The translations under genes were made by a program, and so were the position numbers. Shown here piece by piece: positions 1-5,686 of a stretch of DNA of 5,686 bases (positions within the stretch are counted from its first letter, which is position 1; the number at the start of each line of letters is the position of its first letter). A model generated the notes under the pieces. That model did no database searches. It saw only the letters and a program-made list of their open reading frames with translations, and had not been told where the DNA came from. This DNA comes from a virus: IMG/VR virus record IMGVR_UViG_3300045988_002953, positions 1 to 5,686 of that record; one strand, written 5' to 3'.

Positions 1-77
1 CTAATTTGTCTTTCCAGTAGTTTCCGAAGTTGCTGCCGATGTACTGATTGTTCTTAGGCGTTGTTTCGGCTGCTGTG
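1..77. repeat. Left copy of a 77-bp exact direct terminal repeat (identical to 5610..5686). This is the overlap of a circular genome assembly; unit length is 5,609 nt.
   Basis: Base-by-base comparison: ctaatttgtctttccagtag...ggctgctgtg is identical at both window ends. A single ORF (VP2) reads continuously across the implied junction. Confidence 0.95.
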
Positions 78-841
78 TCTTTTTTTGCTTTGTTGTCACT
101 TGTTTTTTTGCCGCTGGTGTTGTTTTGGTTGAGCCATCCGGTTAAGTCTGGAAAGTCCGTTTGATAGCTGTTATAACCGCTACTGTGCTGCTCTCCGTGC
201 GAGTCTGTCCATGACCAGCTTTCCGCTTTGGTCTTGCTGTAGTTTGCTACTGTGCCGGAGATCGTCGGCATACTGGATGACTGCGTCCCGACGCTTGGCG
301 CGCTTATGCTGCTCTGTCCAATGGTCCCTTGTGCTCCGCCCGGTGTGCTTGCTCCGCCTTGCTGGTATGCGAGTATTGGATTCAACCCCGCTTTTTTCAT
401 GTCGGCCATTGCTCTTTGGTAGCTCGTGTTGCTCATACGCTCTTGCCATGCCCTGTTAGCCGCCGCTTCTGCTGAGTTGTAGGACATCGTTGCATCCTGC
501 TGGATGCGATTATAAACGCCCTGCTGGATAGCTCCCAGAGTGTTTAAGCCCAGTGCCATGAGAGAGTTCTTATCGTTTTGCTGACTCTGCATTCCTTGCG
601 CTTGTTGACTTTGCCCCAAAAAGTATTTGGCGAGTTCTTTTGTTTGGTCAACATTTACGCCGCTTTCGCCGGTCATTGTTGACCCGCTTGCGCCTTGGCT
701 TGTCTGGTATCCGCTTGAGCTTGTTGCTCCGCTGCCGGATGTGCCTTTGAGTGCGTTGAATATGCCTGTTCCGGTGTTTATGAGTGTGCTCACGCCGCCC
801 AGTAATTTTGCGCCTGTTGCTAGTGCTGCTAAAAGTGACAT
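1..841 (-). CDS. VP2: DNA pilot / minor capsid protein VP2 (phiX174 H analogue), 5' portion. It starts at ATG 841..839, runs off the left edge and continues on the circle at 5609..5596. Total length is 284 aa.
   Basis: Manual translation of the minus strand gave no stop over 280 codons: [26 protein letters not shown]...[35 protein letters not shown]...NYWKDKL. SD AAGGAG lies at 848..853, 6 nt before the ATG. A G/S/T/Q-rich N-terminus followed by an (N/E)RxxSxTxYQRxxxDxKxAGLNP-type core is what I recall for Microviridae VP2. The ORF is absent from the track only because it crosses the window edge. Confidence 0.88.
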
Positions 842-862
842 TTTTTTCTCCTTTACAAGAAT

Positions 863-882
863 AGCCGGGTTTTGACCCGGCT
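863..882 (-). terminator. Stem-loop in the 46-nt VP1-VP2 intergenic gap. Candidate partial terminator/attenuator or mRNA stabiliser.
   Basis: agccgggt (863..870) pairs perfectly with acccggct (875..882) around a 4-nt loop. In minus sense it sits 5 nt after the VP1 stop and is followed by AUUCUUGU, an imperfect U tract. Confidence 0.45.
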
Positions 883-887
883 TTGTA

Positions 888-2549
888 TTAGTGATGGTCG
901 ATGAGTCCCGGAATGGAGTACACCGGCATACACCGCGTTGTCTTGTTCATGAAGTAGAAGTCTGCAATAAAGTCCGGCTGAGCCTGTACCGCAAGAGTCC
1001 GCTTCATTTCGGCTTCGCCCTGTTCCATCCAAGCCGTGCTCAGTGTGGGAAGCGCGTTGTAGTCCTGTGCATAGTGCCATGCATCGAGACTTTGTTGTGC
1101 GTTGCTTCTGAACAGTCCGGTAACCTTGCTCGGCTTATACCGATAGTCGGCCCATGCTTCCTGATAGCCGAATGCTTCATCGTCCTTTGTGTTGCCCTGT
1201 GCATAGATTTCTTTGTTGAGGATCGCTTGTTCGCCGATGTTTGCCAGTACCGGCCAGTAGTAATCATATCGGCCTTTGCGGCTCCACATGCGTTCGATAC
1301 CCTGCTGATAGGTCTGGTCGGTGCGGACGACTGCCAGACCCATGATGAGACCATGCTCAGTAAAGGACTTGGTAAACATAGGTTTGTTCATGGTGGTTAC
1401 ACTCAACGCCGCTGTGTTGCCCAGCGGACTCGTGCCGTCGGTCGAAGAGGTCTGGATAACCTGAGACACGTTGATAGGCAGTCTGTAGCCGCCCAGATAT
1501 TCCGGAATCTGCATACGAGAGTCAGGAGAGATAACTCCGAAGTGCTCGCGCAGTACCTCGCGGTATCTCGTGCCGCCGCGTGCGTCTTTTTCCAGCAGTT
1601 TCTGAATCTGGAATGCCTGTCTCAGCTGGTTGATGGTTGCTGCTGTTACTGCTCCAAGGTCTGCGCCGATGTATGCGTAACTGCTTGTTTCTTGCGTTAC
1701 CGGGTTTCCAAAGCTGTATCCGCTTTTTGTTGCTCCTCTCATCCTTGCGTCTGAGCTTTCGCTCTGGATTAAGCCCGCTTCGTTCCCTCCCCATGTCCAG
1801 GGACTGCTGTAGGTATCGCCTTTTTTGATGGACGTTGCCGGTTTTGTCATTTCTTCGTCGAGATATGTTTTGATTGGCGCGTTACCGCTCAGCGGTATGG
1901 TGATCGGCTCGCCTTTCTGAGGCTCCGGCAAAGCTCCGGTGTAGTAGTCAAACACCTTCGCTGCCTTGAGAGGCTTTGCCAACGTGATAGCGCTGTCATT
2001 GGTAGCGCTGCCGTCGTTTTTGCCGGTCGTGGTTGCGTCTGTTACCTCTACGAGTGTCGGCTGCGTGACGTTTTGGTTTCTGAACCATTCGTTGTAGATG
2101 AGGCCGTATGCTCGACCGGGCAGAGCGCTCACGCTGATGCCCTCGACTTTGGTAGGCAGTCCCAGATAGTCCGCCAGCGTACCTTCCGCCCATCCGCCTG
2201 TCGGTGCCGTCACTTGCGGCACACTGTACTCCGTCTTAGGTGTCCATGCGGTTTCTTTGTTCTCGCCCATAAACTCCTTCCAGTGTTCCCATAAGAGTCG
2301 GTTTGGCACGAAAAAGAAGTAGAAATCACAAAAGGCGTTGTCCATCACCGGGAAGATTGGTGTTGCCATTCGCATCACACACGCAACATCGACTTGGTGC
2401 GTATCACCCGGTAATACTTCATCCAGATAAATCGGGATGAGTTCGCCGGTGTTAAAGGTGGTTTTGTTGTCACTGTTGCGCTGGAATCTGCTTCGGCTTA
2501 CTCCTACTTGTGGATTCTGTGCAAAGTTGTATTCACTGTTGCGGTTCAC
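888..2549 (-). CDS. VP1: Major capsid protein VP1 (F-protein family), 553 aa, GTG start.
   Basis: The N-terminus [50 protein letters not shown] is the hallmark Microviridae VP1/F motif (SRSxF...HKTTF..G.L.P....EVLPGDT). The size is typical of gokushovirus VP1. SD AAGGAGG lies at 2557..2563, 7 nt before the start. The start codon reads GTG (2549..2547). Confidence 0.97.
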
Positions 2550-3022
2550 TCTGCTTCCTCCTTTTTCTCTGTTGCGTTTTTAGCCGGCTTTTCTTCCTTC
2601 AGGAGTCCCATTTTATCGGCCCATTCTGTCGTGCCGTAGGCCATGACGTATTTTTCCACGTCGTTGTCCCATTTGTTTTTGATTTCGATAGGCAGCTTGT
2701 CAAACTCCGCTTCCGCGTCTTTGATACGCCCATACCACTCGTGGTAGTTTGTCGGCGCGTCCGAAATATCGGTCATCGTCTCGCTGGTCTGCCAGTCCTG
2801 ACTGCCCAGTGCAGTCGGGTCATACGTTGCCCGCTTGATGATGTTTTCGATTTTGGTTTCATCCAGACGGCTCTGGATGAGTGCATAGACGTCCGTTTCT
2901 CCGGTTTTTACCAGCTCCCGGCCTTCTTCCGTTACCTTGTACTCATACTCAGGTTCATGGCCGTTGCCGGTCAGGCTCGTATGCCTTACCTGCCCGCTGT
3001 ATGCGCTCCTAAATTCACTCAT
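2546..3022 (-). CDS. VP3: Internal scaffolding protein VP3, 158 aa (internal start of the 231-aa track ORF).
   Basis: The start is ATG 3022..3020, with a GAGGG SD about 8 nt upstream. Sequence: MSEFRSAYSG...AEAEFDKLPIEIKNKWDNDVEKYV...[16 protein letters not shown]. The FxxLPxEI(R/K)xKFxNDxExF-like block and acidic tail match my memory of gokushovirus VP3. The 73 codons upstream in the track ORF are S/R/T-rich junk that overlaps ORF80 in another frame. Confidence 0.8.
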   Translation of the reverse strand: MSEFRSAYSGQVRHTSLTGNGHEPEYEYKVTEEGRELVKTGETDVYALIQSRLDETKIENIIKRATYDPTALGSQDWQTSETMTDISDAPTNYHEWYGRIKDAEAEFDKLPIEIKNKWDNDVEKYVMAYGTTEWADKMGLLKEEKPAKNATEKKEEAE

Positions 3023-3257
3023 TGGGCTTGCCCTCACATACGCACGTGTTGACGTTATCGACGATTTCGCCTGTCTCGTCCTCCATGGTGCAGATGTAGT
3101 GCAGCCGGAAGTCTTCCGGCTTGACGCTGATAAAGCTGTCCTTGTTCTTCTGCTGGCTTTCGAAGAGCCTGCTTGCGACTGCGTCGTTCTGTTGTTCGAA
3201 GAGTCCGCTATAGCTCTTGGCCACTTTGTCGTAAATTGCATAGTATCTTTTCAGCAT
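3015..3257 (-). CDS. Small non-structural protein, 80 aa, function unknown (possibly VP5-like).
   Basis: The ATG 3257..3255 shares one base with the upstream TAA (TAATG). The stop overlaps the VP3 start (ATGAGTGA). Composition is coding-like. The N-terminus MLKRYYAIYDKVAKSYSGLFEQQNDAVASRLF resembles, from memory only, small 'nonstructural' proteins annotated in gokushovirus genomes. Confidence 0.7.
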   Translation of the reverse strand: MLKRYYAIYDKVAKSYSGLFEQQNDAVASRLFESQQKNKDSFISVKPEDFRLHYICTMEDETGEIVDNVNTCVCEGKPNE

Positions 3258-3376
3258 TACAGTCTCGTGCCTCCTCGCATGTTTTTCGGGCTTACGTTGA
3301 CGGCCTTGGTTTTCTTTGCCGTCTGGGTAAACACTTTCGTGTCTTTCGACTTTTTGACCTTACTCCGCTTCGCCAT
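3257..3376 (-). CDS. Small basic DNA-binding/packaging protein (phiX174 J / chlamydiaphage ORF8-like), 39 aa.
   Basis: The internal Met of the 90-aa track ORF gives MAKRSKVKKSKDTKVFTQTAKKTKAVNVSPKNMRGGTRL. It has 13 K/R in 39 residues. The C-terminal MRGGxRL matches the conserved end of gokushovirus J-like proteins as I recall them. SD AAGGAG lies at 3385..3390, 8 nt upstream of the ATG at 3376. Confidence 0.8.
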   Translation of the reverse strand: MAKRSKVKKSKDTKVFTQTAKKTKAVNVSPKNMRGGTRL

Positions 3377-3587
3377 TGTTGATTCTCCTTCTGATTTGTT
3401 CCATTTCAATGTCTTTCGCAAAAGCCTTTTTGCGGAATGCCATATCGATGTAAAACTTGGCGTCCTCGATTGTGGCGGCTTTGCATACATGTTTGTACGT
3501 TGTTTCGATTTCTTTGTAGGTTCTTGCAAGCATTTCTGCTAGTGTTTTGTCGGGCTGGTCTCGCACATTCCATGTTTTGGTCGTCAT
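3360..3587 (-). CDS. Hypothetical protein, 75 aa, probably helical.
   Basis: ATG 3587..3585 is preceded by SD AAGGAG (3593..3598). The 3' end overlaps the J-like gene start by 17 nt. I recognise no family. Confidence 0.7.
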   Translation of the reverse strand: MTTKTWNVRDQPDKTLAEMLARTYKEIETTYKHVCKAATIEDAKFYIDMAFRKKAFAKDIEMEQIRRRINNGEAE

Positions 3588-3745
3588 GGTTACTCCTTCG
3601 GCTGGTTGCCTTCTACTGCGTGGTAAATCTTATCCAGCATGGCTAAGATCTTGCGTATGTTGTTAAACAGCGCGTTAATCTCCTTGAAGGTCAGAGCGGT
3701 TCACCTCTTTCTAAAAATTATTTTGTATAAATGTTTTTGTAAAAT

Positions 3746-3759
3746 AGCACTTCTGTGCT
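3746..3759 (-). terminator. Weak stem-loop after ORF59.
   Basis: The minus-sense sequence is AGCAC-agaa-GTGCT followed by AUUUUAC. The stem is only 5 bp. Confidence 0.25.
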
Positions 3760-3771
3760 GTTTAACCTTGT

Positions 3772-3951
3772 TTATTGCTCTACCCAATTTTCCGGGTCGA
3801 GTGCTGCCGTTGTGCCTAGCAGCTCTTTATTGATGCGGTAGCATCCTCCATTGCTCTGGTTAATAACGTATCTGTATTTTGCGGTATCGTAGGAGCCGAT
3901 TTCTTCTAGCTCCCTCAAGGCTTTGACACTCAGACGATTGATGGTATTCAT
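3772..3951 (-). CDS. Hypothetical protein, 59 aa. It is the first gene after the promoter and falls below the ORF-track size cutoff.
   Basis: Manual translation: MNTINRLSVKALRELEEIGSYDTAKYRYVINQSNGGCYRINKELLGTTAALDPENWVEQ*. An SD-like AAGGGGG (3959..3965) lies 7 nt before ATG 3951..3949. Base composition is balanced and coding-like, unlike the AT-rich flanks. The gene sits about 18-20 nt downstream of the predicted transcription start. Confidence 0.55.
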   Translation of the reverse strand: MNTINRLSVKALRELEEIGSYDTAKYRYVINQSNGGCYRINKELLGTTAALDPENWVEQ

Positions 3952-3975
3952 CTCTATACCCCCTTCTTTATCTGC

Positions 3976-4004
3976 ATTATACCACAGATTTTTCGATTTG
4001 TCAT
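3976..4004 (-). promoter_or_regulatory. Near-consensus sigma70/sigmaA-type promoter with an extended -10.
   Basis: The minus strand reads ATGACA (4004..3999), a 17-nt spacer, then TGG-TATAAT (3984..3976). That is 5/6 for the -35, a perfect -10 and a TGn extension. An A/T-rich tract (AAAATAAAAAGTTTCAGAAAA) lies upstream. It faces ORF59 and the whole gene chain. Confidence 0.6.
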
Positions 4005-4113
4005 GAGGTTTTCTGAAACTTTTTATTTTAGGTCATGTGGTAGGCGCGGTGCGCCGTGCGAAGAGCATGACGCAACTTTTCGGTTTCGCTCGCCGGACGG
4101 CCTTTATTTGCTT

Positions 4114-4140
4114 TTTCAACACTTTCAACACTTTCAACAG
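4114..4140 (+). repeat. Three tandem 9-bp repeats: TTTCAACAC, TTTCAACAC, TTTCAACAG.
   Basis: Read directly: 4114..4122, 4123..4131 and 4132..4140. Confidence 0.95.
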
Positions 4141-4141
4141 G

Positions 4142-4150
4142 TTTTCCACA
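4142..4150 (+). promoter_or_regulatory. DnaA-box-like 9-mer TTTTCCACA (8/9 to TTATCCACA).
   Basis: It directly abuts the third 9-bp repeat. It shares the TCCACAAAA extension with the perfect box at 4206. Confidence 0.45.
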
Positions 4151-4187
4151 AAATGTTGCACAAAGGTTTTTGTGTATATTGCTACAT

Positions 4188-4205
4188 TTTCAACATTTTA
4201 ACAAG
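4188..4205 (+). repeat. Further repeat units TTTCAACAT plus a degenerate TTTAACAAG.
   Basis: Read directly, in the same orientation as the other copies. A further variant, ATCAACA, lies at 4220..4226. Confidence 0.8.
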
Positions 4206-4281
4206 TTATCCACAAAAATATCAACATTAAAATAATCCAAAAAATATCGTTCCAAGGATAAAAATTCATAGTATTCAACAT
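4198..4281 (-). CDS. Speculative 27-aa hydrophobic peptide, MLNTMNFYPWNDIFWIILMLIFLWITC.
   Basis: SD AGGGAG (4289..4294) lies 7 nt before ATG 4281..4279, and the stop is TAA 4200..4198. The reading frame is built from the repeat units and the DnaA box themselves, so it may be a by-product of those motifs. Confidence 0.2.
   Translation of the reverse strand: MLNTMNFYPWNDIFWIILMLIFLWITC
4206..4214 (+). promoter_or_regulatory. Perfect consensus DnaA box TTATCCACA.
   Basis: It is an exact 9/9 match to the classical DnaA box. It has the same orientation as the 8/9 box 64 bp upstream, and both are followed by AAA(A). Confidence 0.5.
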
Positions 4282-4289
4282 TTCAACAC
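4272..4289 (+). repeat. Two more tandem 9-bp repeat units: TATTCAACA, TTTCAACAC.
   Basis: Read directly. This brings the count to six perfect TTCAACA cores within 4115..4288, all in one orientation. Confidence 0.9.
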
Positions 4290-4293
4290 TCCC

Positions 4294-4308
4294 TACTACT
4301 ACTACTAC
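4294..4308. repeat. (TAC)5 microsatellite.
   Basis: tactactactactac was read directly. Confidence 0.95.
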
Positions 4309-4313
4309 AACAA

Positions 4314-4341
4314 GTTATATATAATAGATGATGTTTGTAAA
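4314..4341 (-). promoter_or_regulatory. Second, weaker candidate promoter.
   Basis: The minus strand reads TTTACA (4341..4336), a 16-nt spacer, then TATAAC (4319..4314). Both hexamers score 5/6. It would transcribe through the repeat/DnaA-box array. Confidence 0.3.
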
Positions 4342-4382
4342 TACACGTGCGTGCGTGCGCGTTTCGCGCGTGCGTGCGCGTG
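4341..4382. repeat. GC-rich alternating purine-pyrimidine tract containing a 13-bp direct repeat CGTGCGTGCGCGT (4350..4362 and 4369..4381).
   Basis: 4341..4362 (22 nt) and 4365..4382 (18 nt) alternate Pu/Py perfectly and are separated by TT. The central GCGCG-ttt-CGCGC (4357..4369) can form a small hairpin. Confidence 0.9.
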
Positions 4383-4405
4383 AGCGTAATTGAGCCTATG
4401 ATTTG

Positions 4406-4435
4406 CCTCGTACCTCGGTAGCCCCTACGAGGGGC
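4406..4435. other. Two mutually exclusive hairpins.
   Basis: The first is CCTCGTA (4406..4412) paired with TACGAGG (4426..4432) around a 13-nt loop. The second is GCCCC (4421..4425) paired with GGGGC (4431..4435) around a 5-nt loop. They share bases 4426..4432. Confidence 0.5.
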
Positions 4436-4443
4436 GTACACGA

Positions 4444-4484
4444 AAGGGGTCTCCCGTGGCGACAGGAGACCCTTTCTTGTTTTT
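4444..4484. terminator. Strong GC hairpin with flanking A and T tracts (intrinsic-terminator-like).
   Basis: GGGTCTCC (4447..4454) pairs with GGAGACCC (4465..4472), extendable by A-T/G-T pairs at 4444..4446 with 4473..4475. On the plus strand it is followed by TTTCTTGTTTTT. In minus sense (downstream of rep) the U tract is only CUUUCG. Confidence 0.5.
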
Positions 4485-4526
4485 ATGATGCTTTTAATTA
4501 GCCGTGGATAGCTATGAAACTTGGGT

Positions 4527-4563
4527 GTGGGCCTAATCCTCTTCTTGACAGGATTAGGCCCAC
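4527..4563. terminator. 14-bp perfect-stem hairpin whose stem begins 10 nt after the rep stop.
   Basis: gtgggcctaatcct (4527..4540) pairs perfectly with aggattaggcccac (4550..4563) around a 9-nt loop, cttcttgac. There is no good U tract in either sense, so it may be a structural ssDNA element rather than a classical terminator. Confidence 0.45.
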
Positions 4564-4572
4564 TGACACCAT

Positions 4573-5595
4573 TTAGAGAATCCCTCTTGCTTTACTAAAG
4601 CGTTCTCTGAGATTCTTTTCCTTAATTTTTCCTTGCTCTTCGATAGTTACGTCTGTGTTTGACATCTTGACTTTAAGTGCATTTATTGCACTTGACTGTC
4701 TTTTTTTTTTAATCTCCCACAGCCTTTTGGGATTTTCAGCTTCTTGCATCTTGTCAAAGTACCTTGGAATGGGCCTTTTTTTGCCGTTAAAATATAATCC
4801 ATCGTCTTTGTACATTTGTTCTTTGTGCTCTTGGTAGTAGTCGTATCCTAGACCCGGATTTCGTGACATGCAGCAGTAAGGCGCTGGTAGCCCTAGCTCA
4901 TTGTATCGTTTTGTGTCGTTGCCGTAGGCTTTTTTTGTCACATATCCCGCTACATACGCCATTGTTTCCGGTGACGCCTCTGTAATTATCACATTGCCCA
5001 TTCCCCAGATTTTGTCTATTGTTTCGCTCTCAAAGTATGGATTATTGCCTCTTTTTTTCTTTAGGTCTGGTATTTCTAACCCATAATAGATTGCATGGTG
5101 ATGCGGTCTGCCTGTGGTTTCGCCGTATTCGCCGCAATAAAAATATCTGAGGTCTGTACCCCATTTATCGGACATTTCTTGCTTTTTTCGGAGTCTTTTG
5201 TTAAAAAGTACCATGTCCTCTTGCAATAGGATTTGCACAACTTCTGGTGCGTCTCCCGTTGTCCACTGGTGTGTTGCTCCACGTATAAGTTCGCCTGTTG
5301 CTCTTACCATTCCTGGCACGTACTCTTGATTCCACGTCAGGGTTAAAAACCATACTGGTGACAGTGTTTTTGACTCCATCAGCATCCTTGTCTCCCAATC
5401 CTGCCGCTGTCTGAGTCTGCATCCCAGACATTTGCCACATGGCAGTAACATCACGTCTGTTCTGTACGCGATGCTTTCATACGTTGCTTTTGGATTGTGC
5501 GCCCTTTCGCGGTACGTCTCTAAGGTCATGATTGACCCTGTTATGTTATGGTTGTTTGGGTTGTATACTCTGATAAGTGGTCTTTCACAGCTCAT
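4573..5595 (-). CDS. VP4: Replication initiation protein VP4 (HUH rolling-circle endonuclease, phiX174 A analogue), 340 aa.
   Basis: It carries a Cys cluster LPCGKCLGCRLRQRQDW, motif I FLTLTW, the HUH motif RPHHHAIYYG and the catalytic Tyr motif YVAGYVTKK. SD GGAGG lies at 5603..5607, 7 nt before ATG 5595..5593. The ATG directly follows the VP2 stop (TAAATG). Confidence 0.95.
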   Translation of the reverse strand: MSCERPLIRVYNPNNHNITGSIMTLETYRERAHNPKATYESIAYRTDVMLLPCGKCLGCRLRQRQDWETRMLMESKTLSPVWFLTLTWNQEYVPGMVRATGELIRGATHQWTTGDAPEVVQILLQEDMVLFNKRLRKKQEMSDKWGTDLRYFYCGEYGETTGRPHHHAIYYGLEIPDLKKKRGNNPYFESETIDKIWGMGNVIITEASPETMAYVAGYVTKKAYGNDTKRYNELGLPAPYCCMSRNPGLGYDYYQEHKEQMYKDDGLYFNGKKRPIPRYFDKMQEAENPKRLWEIKKKRQSSAINALKVKMSNTDVTIEEQGKIKEKNLRERFSKARGIL

Positions 5596-5686
5596 TTATT
5601 TACCTCCCCCTAATTTGTCTTTCCAGTAGTTTCCGAAGTTGCTGCCGATGTACTGATTGTTCTTAGGCGTTGTTTCGGCTGCTGTG
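5596..5686 (-). CDS. VP2: 3' end of VP2 (...[24 protein letters not shown]), with stop TAA at 5598..5596.
   Basis: This is the same frame as 1..841 when 5610 is equated with position 1. Bases 5610..5686 duplicate 1..77. Confidence 0.88.
   Translation of the reverse strand, partial: TAAETTPKNNQYIGSNFGNYWKDKLGGGK
5610..5686. repeat. Right copy of the 77-bp terminal direct repeat.
   Basis: It is identical to 1..77. Confidence 0.95.

Follow-up and report, generated by a model that had tools for sequence, protein, structure and literature searches.

Why should a virus that packs its genes so closely leave almost a kilobase between two of them? The question is raised by IMG/VR virus record IMGVR_UViG_3300045988_002953, whose positions 1 to 5,686 make up the stretch analyzed here (the window). 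The window is a complete circular gokushovirus genome in which bases 1-77 recur as 5610-5686, an assembly overlap, which leaves an actual length of 5609 nt; the same phage turned up in one public run as a contig of 5,639 nt. The minus strand carries all genes and is referred to below as the coding strand. As an initial annotation of the sequence had recognized, a gap of 985 nt (3588-4572) separates the stop codon of the VP4 (Rep) gene at 4573 from the start of open reading frame (ORF) ORF75 at 3587. The remainder is indeed compact, with VP2 abutting VP4 and no other gap on the 5609-nt circle larger than 46 nt. We assign a probability of about one-half to the reading that 3952-4572 is a control region whose core of ~230 nt (4113-4345) would act as an oriC-like module, recruiting the host DnaA and melting DNA.

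The argument starts from the order of elements in the core. On the coding strand, an AT-rich tract and the motif TAACTTGTTG are followed by a run of trinucleotides, a short spacer, two tandem 9-mers and, farther on, a longer array of similar 9-mers (Table 1). The least stable 30-bp duplex of the genome lies at 4315-4344 (dG of -28.8 versus a mean of -40.6, with a standard deviation of 3.6). Among relatives, the three box-proximal trinucleotides, or trios, are TAG or TAA in every case, the fourth is NNG, and the fifth is TAG. The spacer is 4 nt long and begins with G in 113/113 relatives (GGAG, GGGC, GCAA, and other variants), while its positions 2 to 4 are among the most variable of the core. 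The proximal boxes of the window, ATTTCAACA and TATTCAACA, are correctly oriented, with two mismatches to TTWTNCACA and three to TTATCCACA. At the same position, 54 of the 113 relatives have TGTGGAAAA (equivalent to TTTTCCACA, a perfect TTWTNCACA) and four have another perfect variant, for a total of 58; in about 75 of the 113, the proximal box is within two mismatches of TTATCCACA. The distal 9-mers belong to the family TGT(G/T)GA(A/T)A(A/T), of which TGTGGATAA and TGTGGAAAA are perfect DnaA boxes. Perfect boxes occur in the window at 4206-4214 (TTATCCACA on the plus strand) and 4142-4150 (TTTTCCACA on the plus strand), and the array also includes copies of TGTTGAAA and one box in the opposite orientation (4171-4179). 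Across the 113 genomes, perfect TTWTNCACA boxes are found at 2.10 per kb around the trios versus 0.078 per kb elsewhere, a 27-fold enrichment, and the enriched boxes hold fixed positions in a single orientation. Within the window, there are six box-like 9-mers versus 0.42 expected and five copies of TGTTGAAA versus 0.24 expected; the composite pattern, with an expectation of zero, was never seen in shuffled sequences. Furthermore, positions 4118-4317 are the best-conserved DNA of the neighborhood, exceeding both the end of the Rep gene and ORF59, and the composition departs from that of the rest of the genome (GC 0.34; AT skew of ~0 at 4051-4350 versus about -0.3 to -0.5 elsewhere). Finally, pairing is possible between the perfect box at 4206-4214 and the inverted one at 4171-4179, which would yield a double-stranded box in a viral-strand hairpin; this hairpin is missing from several lineages. 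A DnaA-box hairpin on single-stranded DNA (ssDNA) is what is known as an ABC primosome.

The arrangement recalls the basal unwinding system (BUS) of bacterial origins, in which, as published (PMC8287927), the layout 3'-[box][box][about 4-nt gap][GAT]n-5' adjoins a tract rich in A+T; a C. difficile trio is on record as well. In B. subtilis, the BUS consists of incC DnaA-box#6/#7, a GC gap, DnaA-trios, and an AT-rich region (Richardson et al.; Pelliciari et al. 2021, PMC8287927; PMC6669920). In the notation of Table S1 of PMC8287927, B. subtilis reads AATAGGTGT TTAGGTGT CCGG GATGATAAT..., L. lactis reads AATATGTCT AATAGGTGT CCTG GATGATGAT..., and Synechococcus elongatus reads AAAAGGTGT AAAAGGTGT CGGG GATGATGAT... 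(PMC8287927). Written in the same way, the window becomes ATAAGTTGT AAAGTTGT GAGG GATGATGATGATGAT, and the majority phage version is AAAAGTTG AAAAGGTGT CGGG GATGATGAT GNN GAT, in which box, gap, and first trios are identical to those of S. elongatus. A BUS box was defined for this comparison as having at most two consensus mismatches, 0-16 bp from the trios and in a fixed orientation, with up to four mismatches allowed in a second tandem box; the window's proximal boxes are at the two-mismatch limit relative to TTWTNCACA and one mismatch beyond it relative to TTATCCACA. Phage and bacterial elements agree in order, strand, orientation, tandem box-like 9-mers, a short gap (~4 bp, often GC-rich in bacterial origins), at least three trios (here (TAG)5, on the strand that also reads 5'-TGTGGATAA-3'), an AT-rich and easily melted region, and additional boxes upstream. 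They differ in that the phage element belongs to a 5.6-kb ssDNA phage with an HUH-endonuclease Rep and lies between VP4 and the small-gene operon, not beside dnaA/dnaN in the rpmH-dnaA-dnaN context of the chromosome. In addition, the phage element has a nearly invariant TAACTTGTTG between trios and AT tract, its fourth trio is free, and many of its boxes are the TTTTCAACA variant. Predictions of oriC include this variant among DnaA boxes, for example as tandem copies in Ruminococcus albus and as the species-specific motif of Chlamydiae. The element is BUS-like in build and is not a chromosomal oriC.

A minimal form of the element exists in KT264799 (L193), a close relative and natural deletion variant, which keeps exactly the AT tract, TAACTTGTTG, (TAG)5, GGAG, and two boxes; its positions 3473-4048 hold unrelated sequence, including small ORFs, in place of the distal array. 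What is retained corresponds to the unit that genetic work in B. subtilis has identified as "basal." Accessory genes seem to be gained and lost preferentially at the site downstream of this minimal core, a position that in MG945233 is occupied by a peptidase-like gene. BUS-type elements were also seen on larger phage-like IMG/VR contigs of 9.6-158 kb (L159 at 340-545, L139 at ~1150-1300, L124/L143/L186, and L135/L145). Like the gokushovirus module, these have an AT run, (TAG)n, a 4-nt gap, tandem TGTGGAWAA, and more boxes; unlike it, they are without TAACTTGTTG and presumably belong to double-stranded DNA phages; these contigs were characterized by ORF and Pfam scans. The independent element on the 9.6-kb contig L159 shares the 24-mer TAGTAGTAGGCAATGTGGAAAAGT with several gokushoviruses, mixes GTTGATAAC with TGTGGATAAC, and contains TTTTCAACA together with canonical boxes. 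Phage-borne DnaA-trio origins may be widespread.

Among gokushoviruses, at least 150 genomes of 4.3-6.2 kb carry the block, and 51 GenBank microvirus records match parts of it, every one leaving it unannotated. When IMG/VR was scanned for exact matches to the most conserved 26-mer, 104 contigs were returned, and those with a listed length are all 4.3-6.2 kb. A looser pattern (three TAG, 4 nt, and a DnaA box) returned at least 120 contigs, mostly gokushovirus-sized, and the gokushovirus matches keep the flanking TAACTTGTTG although the pattern did not require it. MG945908 was considered as a relative without the block and rejected, since the record is a partial genome. The interval was initially described as oversized, but the genome is large relative to cultured gokushoviruses only: relatives with the same block, close and distant, measure 5.2-6.2 kb, and 4,077 microvirus genomes have a median of 5,078 nt and a range of 3.5-8.3 kb (PMC9239249). 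Among 148 carriers, 105 have a VP4 that is 42-50% identical to that of the window, with VP1 similarly distant. Relative to the window, median core identity reaches 0.73 where VP4 identity is <55% and 0.61 where it is at least 80%, and the ratio between the two types of proximal box is the same in the two Rep lineages. None of the accessory proteins occurs in every carrier. Because core and box type are independent of Rep lineage and no accessory protein is universal, a conserved host factor is favored over Rep as the reader of the module. As judged from these comparisons, the core is a portable module whose similarity is independent of Rep relatedness. The idea that the block was acquired survives in this limited sense; it is not a private insertion, and the search for a host or plasmid origin gave no match in PLSDB and no copy of the exact phage motif in 185,579 GTDB genomes. 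Likewise, no prophage state was detected, with the exact VP4 on one 5.6-kb contig only and ORF59 homologues only on contigs of at most 5.8 kb. At the level of sequence, then, the architecture, orientation, spacing, conservation, noncoding nature, and Rep-lineage independence of the module are established.

How might such a module work? Host DnaA would bind about twelve boxes, of which only one has the opposite orientation, and, starting at the tandem boxes beside the 4-nt spacer, would oligomerize along the (TAG)n trios on the coding strand. The oligomer would then melt the adjoining AT-rich tract, the weakest duplex of the genome. Melting could serve to load a helicase, so that the double-stranded form would replicate without Rep in a theta-type or plasmid-like manner, or it could aid Rep or priming functions at neighboring hairpins. 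The elements on either side are of ordinary kinds: for transcription, the Rep-linked hairpin would end the long operon, and a strong sigma70-type promoter would restart it, first through two small accessory genes. DnaA as the binder, the melting, and the purpose of melting are what we infer from this arrangement, and several observations weigh against them. Both proximal boxes of the window are degenerate, with A for the conserved C6, and the trios are separated from its perfect boxes by ~75 and ~140 nt. Relatives show no constraint on the fourth trio, the BUS model does not predict that TAACTTGTTG should be nearly invariant, and the GTTGAAA repeats could be read by another protein. Beside the generic-pattern matches on large IMG/VR contigs, where dnaA or dnaN was sought as a positive control, neither was shown, the neighbors being phage-like or without family, and boxes and trios are entirely absent from gokushoviruses of comparable protein distance that were found in bacterial assemblies. 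Finally, phiX174-type rolling-circle phages are not known to need DnaA.

One alternative is that the block of trios and iterons serves the phage as a rolling-circle (+) origin of its own, with VP4 nicking the viral strand at TAACTTG/TTG (slash at the nick) and GTTGAAA/GTAG repeats binding Rep or another phage protein, so that the likeness to DnaA origins would be a coincidence. The phiX174 nick, CAACTTG/ATA, is similar, and origins of HUH-endonuclease Reps usually have iterons beside the nick site, as the alternative would have it. It also draws support from TAACTTGTTG, which is on the coding strand, adjoins the AT-rich tract, and stays almost unchanged even among matches to a search pattern that did not include it, and from GTTGAAA being more numerous than canonical boxes in the window. 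Yet the block is common to genomes with VP4 42-50% identical and is shuffled independently of VP4 lineage, and most relatives have canonical DnaA boxes for repeats. AACTTG, found on the coding strand at 4316..4311, is not enriched in the window (4 copies versus 3.0 expected). The sequence ATAACTTGTT occurs twice, at 4308-4317 before the trios and at 4198-4207 straight after a perfect DnaA box; because of this repetition, AACTTGTTG may belong to the box or iteron family and not be a Rep nick site. TAACTTGTTG itself could be a box that has degenerated or else an AACTTG-type site at which Rep nicks. Moreover, distant gokushoviruses with a homologous VP4 lack the block and yet have a GTGTCAC hairpin with a conserved loop, so that, of the two, this hairpin is more likely to be a cis element shared across the family. 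On balance, we consider it unlikely that the block is a rolling-circle origin.

The hairpin in question stands beside VP4, next to a GGTGTCA that is invariant in relatives, is repeated, directly or inverted, just upstream in several lineages, and also precedes the equivalent hairpin of the distant gokushoviruses L113 and L119. The loop in relatives reads CTATCAAG(T/A)A, and 9 of the 14 base pairs change on both sides, giving a covariation score of 0.31 versus 0.10 in shuffles (0/500 as high). The family of the stem tracks VP4 lineage in 39/39 and 103/103 genomes, a match that physical linkage to the VP4 gene could also produce. The loop (CTATCAAGTAAG) and the preceding GTGTCAC are kept even in distant gokushoviruses without the module: L113 (3722-3770) and L119 (1404-1452) have GTGTCAC, stem, ATCAAGTAA loop, and stem with no DnaA module, and in L113 the hairpin is upstream of VP4, not downstream. 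Because it is kept in distant gokushoviruses and follows Rep lineage, we regard the hairpin as a family-wide cis element that may be a terminator, a Rep nick site, or a complementary-strand origin; for the same reasons, two readings were downgraded, one placing the Rep nick at TAACTTG and the other treating the hairpin as nothing more than a terminator. The CTTGATA type of nick sequence, which phiX174/pC194-type rolling-circle origins have on the displaced (viral) strand, is absent from the window, where the loop reads CTTGACA, and relatives have it at the hairpin loop on the noncoding strand. In other microviruses, conserved loops and compensatory stem changes have also been noted in hairpins, with a tentative tie to negative-strand priming (PMC9865509). 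Most relatives have after the hairpin the T-run of an intrinsic terminator (TATTTATTTT or TATTTTATT), which the window hairpin (4563..4527) lacks because an insert follows it. This lineage-specific insert contains two to three small, stable hairpins, at 4500-4513, 4444-4475, and 4421-4435. The middle one (4472..4447) scanned as terminator-like on the minus strand and reads on the plus strand as an intrinsic terminator with TTTCTTGTTTTT following; in one subgroup, a different hairpin replaces it at the same place. As ssDNA, the viral strand at 4340-4575 has a fold z of -6.67. Beside the AT-rich tract, the alternating (CG/CA)n tract, which most lineages keep as alternation and not as sequence and some are without, may have the potential to form Z-DNA or a cruciform. 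The phages phiX174 and G4 have a 30-bp gene-A origin and complementary-strand origin hairpins in an intergenic region. They resemble the window phage in the Rep superfamily (PF23343) and in the structured hairpins of the main noncoding region; phiX174, however, has no DnaA boxes or trios, and its origin is inside a gene.

DnaA might also bind the array without firing an origin, either as a sink, carried by the multicopy double-stranded form, through which host initiation would be blocked, analogous to datA and the B. subtilis inc regions, or as a regulator of the promoter at 4004..3976. Either role would suit a dense cluster of boxes followed 110-300 nt downstream by a strong and conserved promoter, with further box-like repeats at a possible second promoter. 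A sink or an operator, however, would need neither trios nor a fixed spacer nor a weakest-duplex tract placed as in an unwinding system, and the natural deletion variant keeps the unwinding core and loses most boxes. We consider binding without firing slightly less likely than a rolling-circle origin. An iteron-type plasmid origin was rejected: there is no cognate RepA/Pi-type initiator, the sole replication protein is the HUH-endonuclease Rep, and the small ORFs are without family. In the plasmid and phage replicons P1 oriR, pSC101, F, and R6K, DnaA boxes are accompanied by an iteron-binding initiator that belongs to the replicon itself, and there are no trios. The phage module is like them in that a mobile replicon would borrow host DnaA through consensus boxes, and it differs in having trios and in that the phage encodes no such initiator.

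The oriC-like reading is supported by the lack of coding periodicity and of single-strand structure in the core, and for 3952-4572 the initial annotation was right that there is no defensible ORF: stops interrupt all six frames, and an independent gene caller leaves the region empty. The longest open stretch of the core is 44 codons. Over 148 unique relatives, variation has no 3-nt periodicity (p = 0.42), conservation falls in 7-9-nt blocks, and core-region indels are not multiples of 3. A coding signal was sought among relatives and was negative for the core and positive for 3588-3951. An unrecognized protein or a structured noncoding RNA in 3952-4572 could be suspected from stop-free stretches of 70-81 codons that cross the core in 32/150 relatives. 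These, however, stand against the six-frame stops, the lack of periodicity, and the non-triplet indels, and tblastn matches to window ORFs on both strands are explained by DNA conservation itself. A scan for transfer RNA (tRNA) and transfer-messenger RNA found none, the four Rfam matches are all far below gathering scores, and the core as a single strand is no better folded than shuffled sequence (z = +0.93). We therefore give very little credence to a hidden product. The description of the interval as largely noncoding is accurate for 3952-4572 and fails for 3588-3951, which holds ORF59 and a 34-codon gene.

The block also contains the main promoter, in which the consensus is matched at 11 of 12 positions. 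Here, 129 of 151 relatives match at 10 or more and 38 are perfect, whereas a control coding region mostly scores 7-8; the ribosome-binding site of ORF59 follows on the coding strand. With a putative transcript-end hairpin, an origin-like protein-binding array, and this promoter all within the block, its earlier designation as a specialized control region is supported. A GC-rich block 25-70 nt upstream of the promoter is kept in a subset of relatives and replaced by unrelated sequence in others. It may be an operator, and its fold as ssDNA is not significant (z = -0.93). The occurrence of TTGACA-17-TG-TATAAT (129/151 genomes) together with AGGAGG and AAGGGGG leads us to infer a host with Shine-Dalgarno sites and promoters of the sigma70/sigmaA type, and not one of the Bacteroidota. 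Two distant relatives, L113 (labelled Clostridia) and L114 (an unclassified gut metagenome-assembled genome), are prophages in chromosomes of gut bacteria, at the ends of long contigs, L113 beside LexA and an Xer-type recombinase and L114 beside a tRNA synthetase.

Within the 985-nt interval, the initial annotation allowed for only one convincing small ORF. That ORF, ORF59, is a genuine accessory gene, with a tblastn match in 26/162 related genomes at 52-90% amino acid identity and 47 protein clusters, every one on contigs of at most 5.8 kb. It is an ORFan restricted to microviruses, and the ribosome-binding site AAGGGGG precedes its start. No PHROG or Pfam family matched ORF59, and a PDB fold search with its confident AlphaFold2 model (mean predicted local distance difference test score of 83.8) was without a match (best E = 0.46). 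A second gene, however, is present at 3694..3590 on the minus strand. This 34-codon gene appears to start at CTG, because an in-frame TGA lies just upstream; the start is CTG in the window and most relatives, TTG in two, and GTG in one, and homologues in other lineages start at ATG or GTG two codons earlier. The start codon lies 6 nt after AAGAGGTGA, with AAGAGGTGA or AGGAGG as ribosome-binding site, and the peptide is conserved (..KEINALFNNIRKILAMLDKIYHAVEGN..), with in-frame indels. Gene callers overlook this CTG-initiated gene. Between the two genes, 3717-3746 is a conserved AT-rich segment that holds the direct repeat TTTTGTAWAA twice on the plus strand (coding strand TTWTACAAA, one mismatch from a DnaA box); alternatively, it is possible to read it as a second promoter (TTTACA, 17 nt, TAATTT).

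The same segment bears on the question of integration. Enterogokushoviruses have dif motifs in the noncoding region between the VP2 and VP5 genes (PMC7062461), and the interval could be an integration region with a dif-like XerCD site of that kind. A weak match to dif, with three mismatches, lies at 3720-3745, and distant relatives are integrated in Clostridia chromosomes, one beside an Xer-type recombinase gene. The match, however, is a direct and not an inverted repeat and falls outside the conserved core, the phage motif is absent from all GTDB genomes, and contigs with ORF59 or VP4 are all at most 5.8 kb. We consider an integration region highly improbable. A proper dif/XerCD site (28 bp, inverted 11-bp arms, and a 6-bp spacer) was rejected, this one partial match being all that was found. 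The circular DNA of enterogokushoviruses is also reported to persist without integration (Kirchberger & Ochman 2020, PMC7062461). Their noncoding region resembles that of the window in lying beside the VP5 gene and in a tie to host persistence, which for the window is putative; the window differs in having an origin-like DnaA array in place of a dif motif, and no integrated copies were found.

The coordinates of these features and of the remaining genes are collected in Table 1. The HHH motif and the two-tyrosine motif YVAGYVTKK can be read directly in the VP4 translation. The 39-residue basic protein corresponds to the C-terminal 39 residues of the ORF at 3529..3257 and matches phrog_10695.

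Table 1. Genes and candidate control elements of the 5,686-nt window (minus, coding strand).
Feature	Position	Strand	Remarks
VP2	841..1 plus 5609..5596	-	abuts VP4
VP1	2549..888	-	
VP3	ends at 2546	-	
VP5	3257..3015	-	
39-residue basic protein	between ORF75 and VP5	-	predicted by an independent gene caller
ORF75	3587..3360	-	
34-codon gene	3590..3694	-	stop TAA 2 nt before ORF75 ATG
Small hairpin after ORF59	3742..3763	-	TTTTAC next on coding strand
ORF59	3951..3772	-	
Sigma70-type promoter	3976..4004	-	-35 ATGACA, 17-nt spacer, TG-n-TATAAT (TGgTATAAT)
GC-rich block	4030..4110		inverted repeat GTCATGC...(A/G)CATGAC around GGCGC-acc-GCGCC
Distal array, ~ten boxes or iterons	4113..4226	-	after a variable AT-rich spacer
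Tandem trio-proximal DnaA-box-like 9-mers, TGTTGAAAT GTTGAATA	4272..4288	-	ATTTCAACA, TATTCAACA on plus strand
G-rich 4-nt spacer, GGAG	4289..4292	-	
(TAG)5, five putative DnaA-trios (3'-GAT-5') on coding strand	4293..4307	-	directly 5' of spacer and boxes
TAACTTGTTG	4308..4317	-	nearly invariant, between trios and AT tract
AT-rich tract, candidate duplex-unwinding element	4318..4345		82% A+T
Alternating purine-pyrimidine (CG/CA)n tract	4346..4382		beside AT-rich tract
Lineage-specific structured insert, 143 nt	4384..4526	-	in 19/150 genomes
Perfect 14-bp hairpin	4527..4563	-	arms 4550-4563 and 4527-4540, loop 4541-4549
GGTGTCA motif	4564..4570	-	just after VP4 stop, invariant in relatives
VP4/Rep	5595..4573	-	HUH-endonuclease Rep, PF23343, phrog_942

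Microviruses are among the commonest phages of the gut. Yet the cis-acting DNA of uncultured gokushoviruses has hardly been described, and their replication and persistence are largely unknown; in the literature collection searched, we found no paper that pairs Microviridae or gokushoviruses with DnaA boxes, and the one that contains both "DnaA" and "microvirus" deals, to judge by its title and abstract, with a different topic, the origins of ssDNA viruses. It is possible, and we advance it as a tentative proposal, that a large clade of gut gokushoviruses carries a portable DnaA unwinding origin beside its rolling-circle Rep. This origin would provide these ssDNA phages of roughly 5.6 kb with a second mode of replication, driven by the host initiator and theta-type or plasmid-like, and the module would pass between phage lineages by recombination. 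If the conserved oriC-like module is what it appears to be, it would name a testable host factor for gokushovirus replication and would offer a mechanism for the reported persistence of gokushoviruses without integration and for their long-term carriage. The box variants, along with the Gram-positive-style promoter and ribosome-binding sites, would provide a handle on host range. The putative natural unwinding core is compact, at ~70 nt, and would lend itself to origin biochemistry. More generally, the module would extend the DnaA-trio unwinding system from bacterial chromosomes to a minimal virus.

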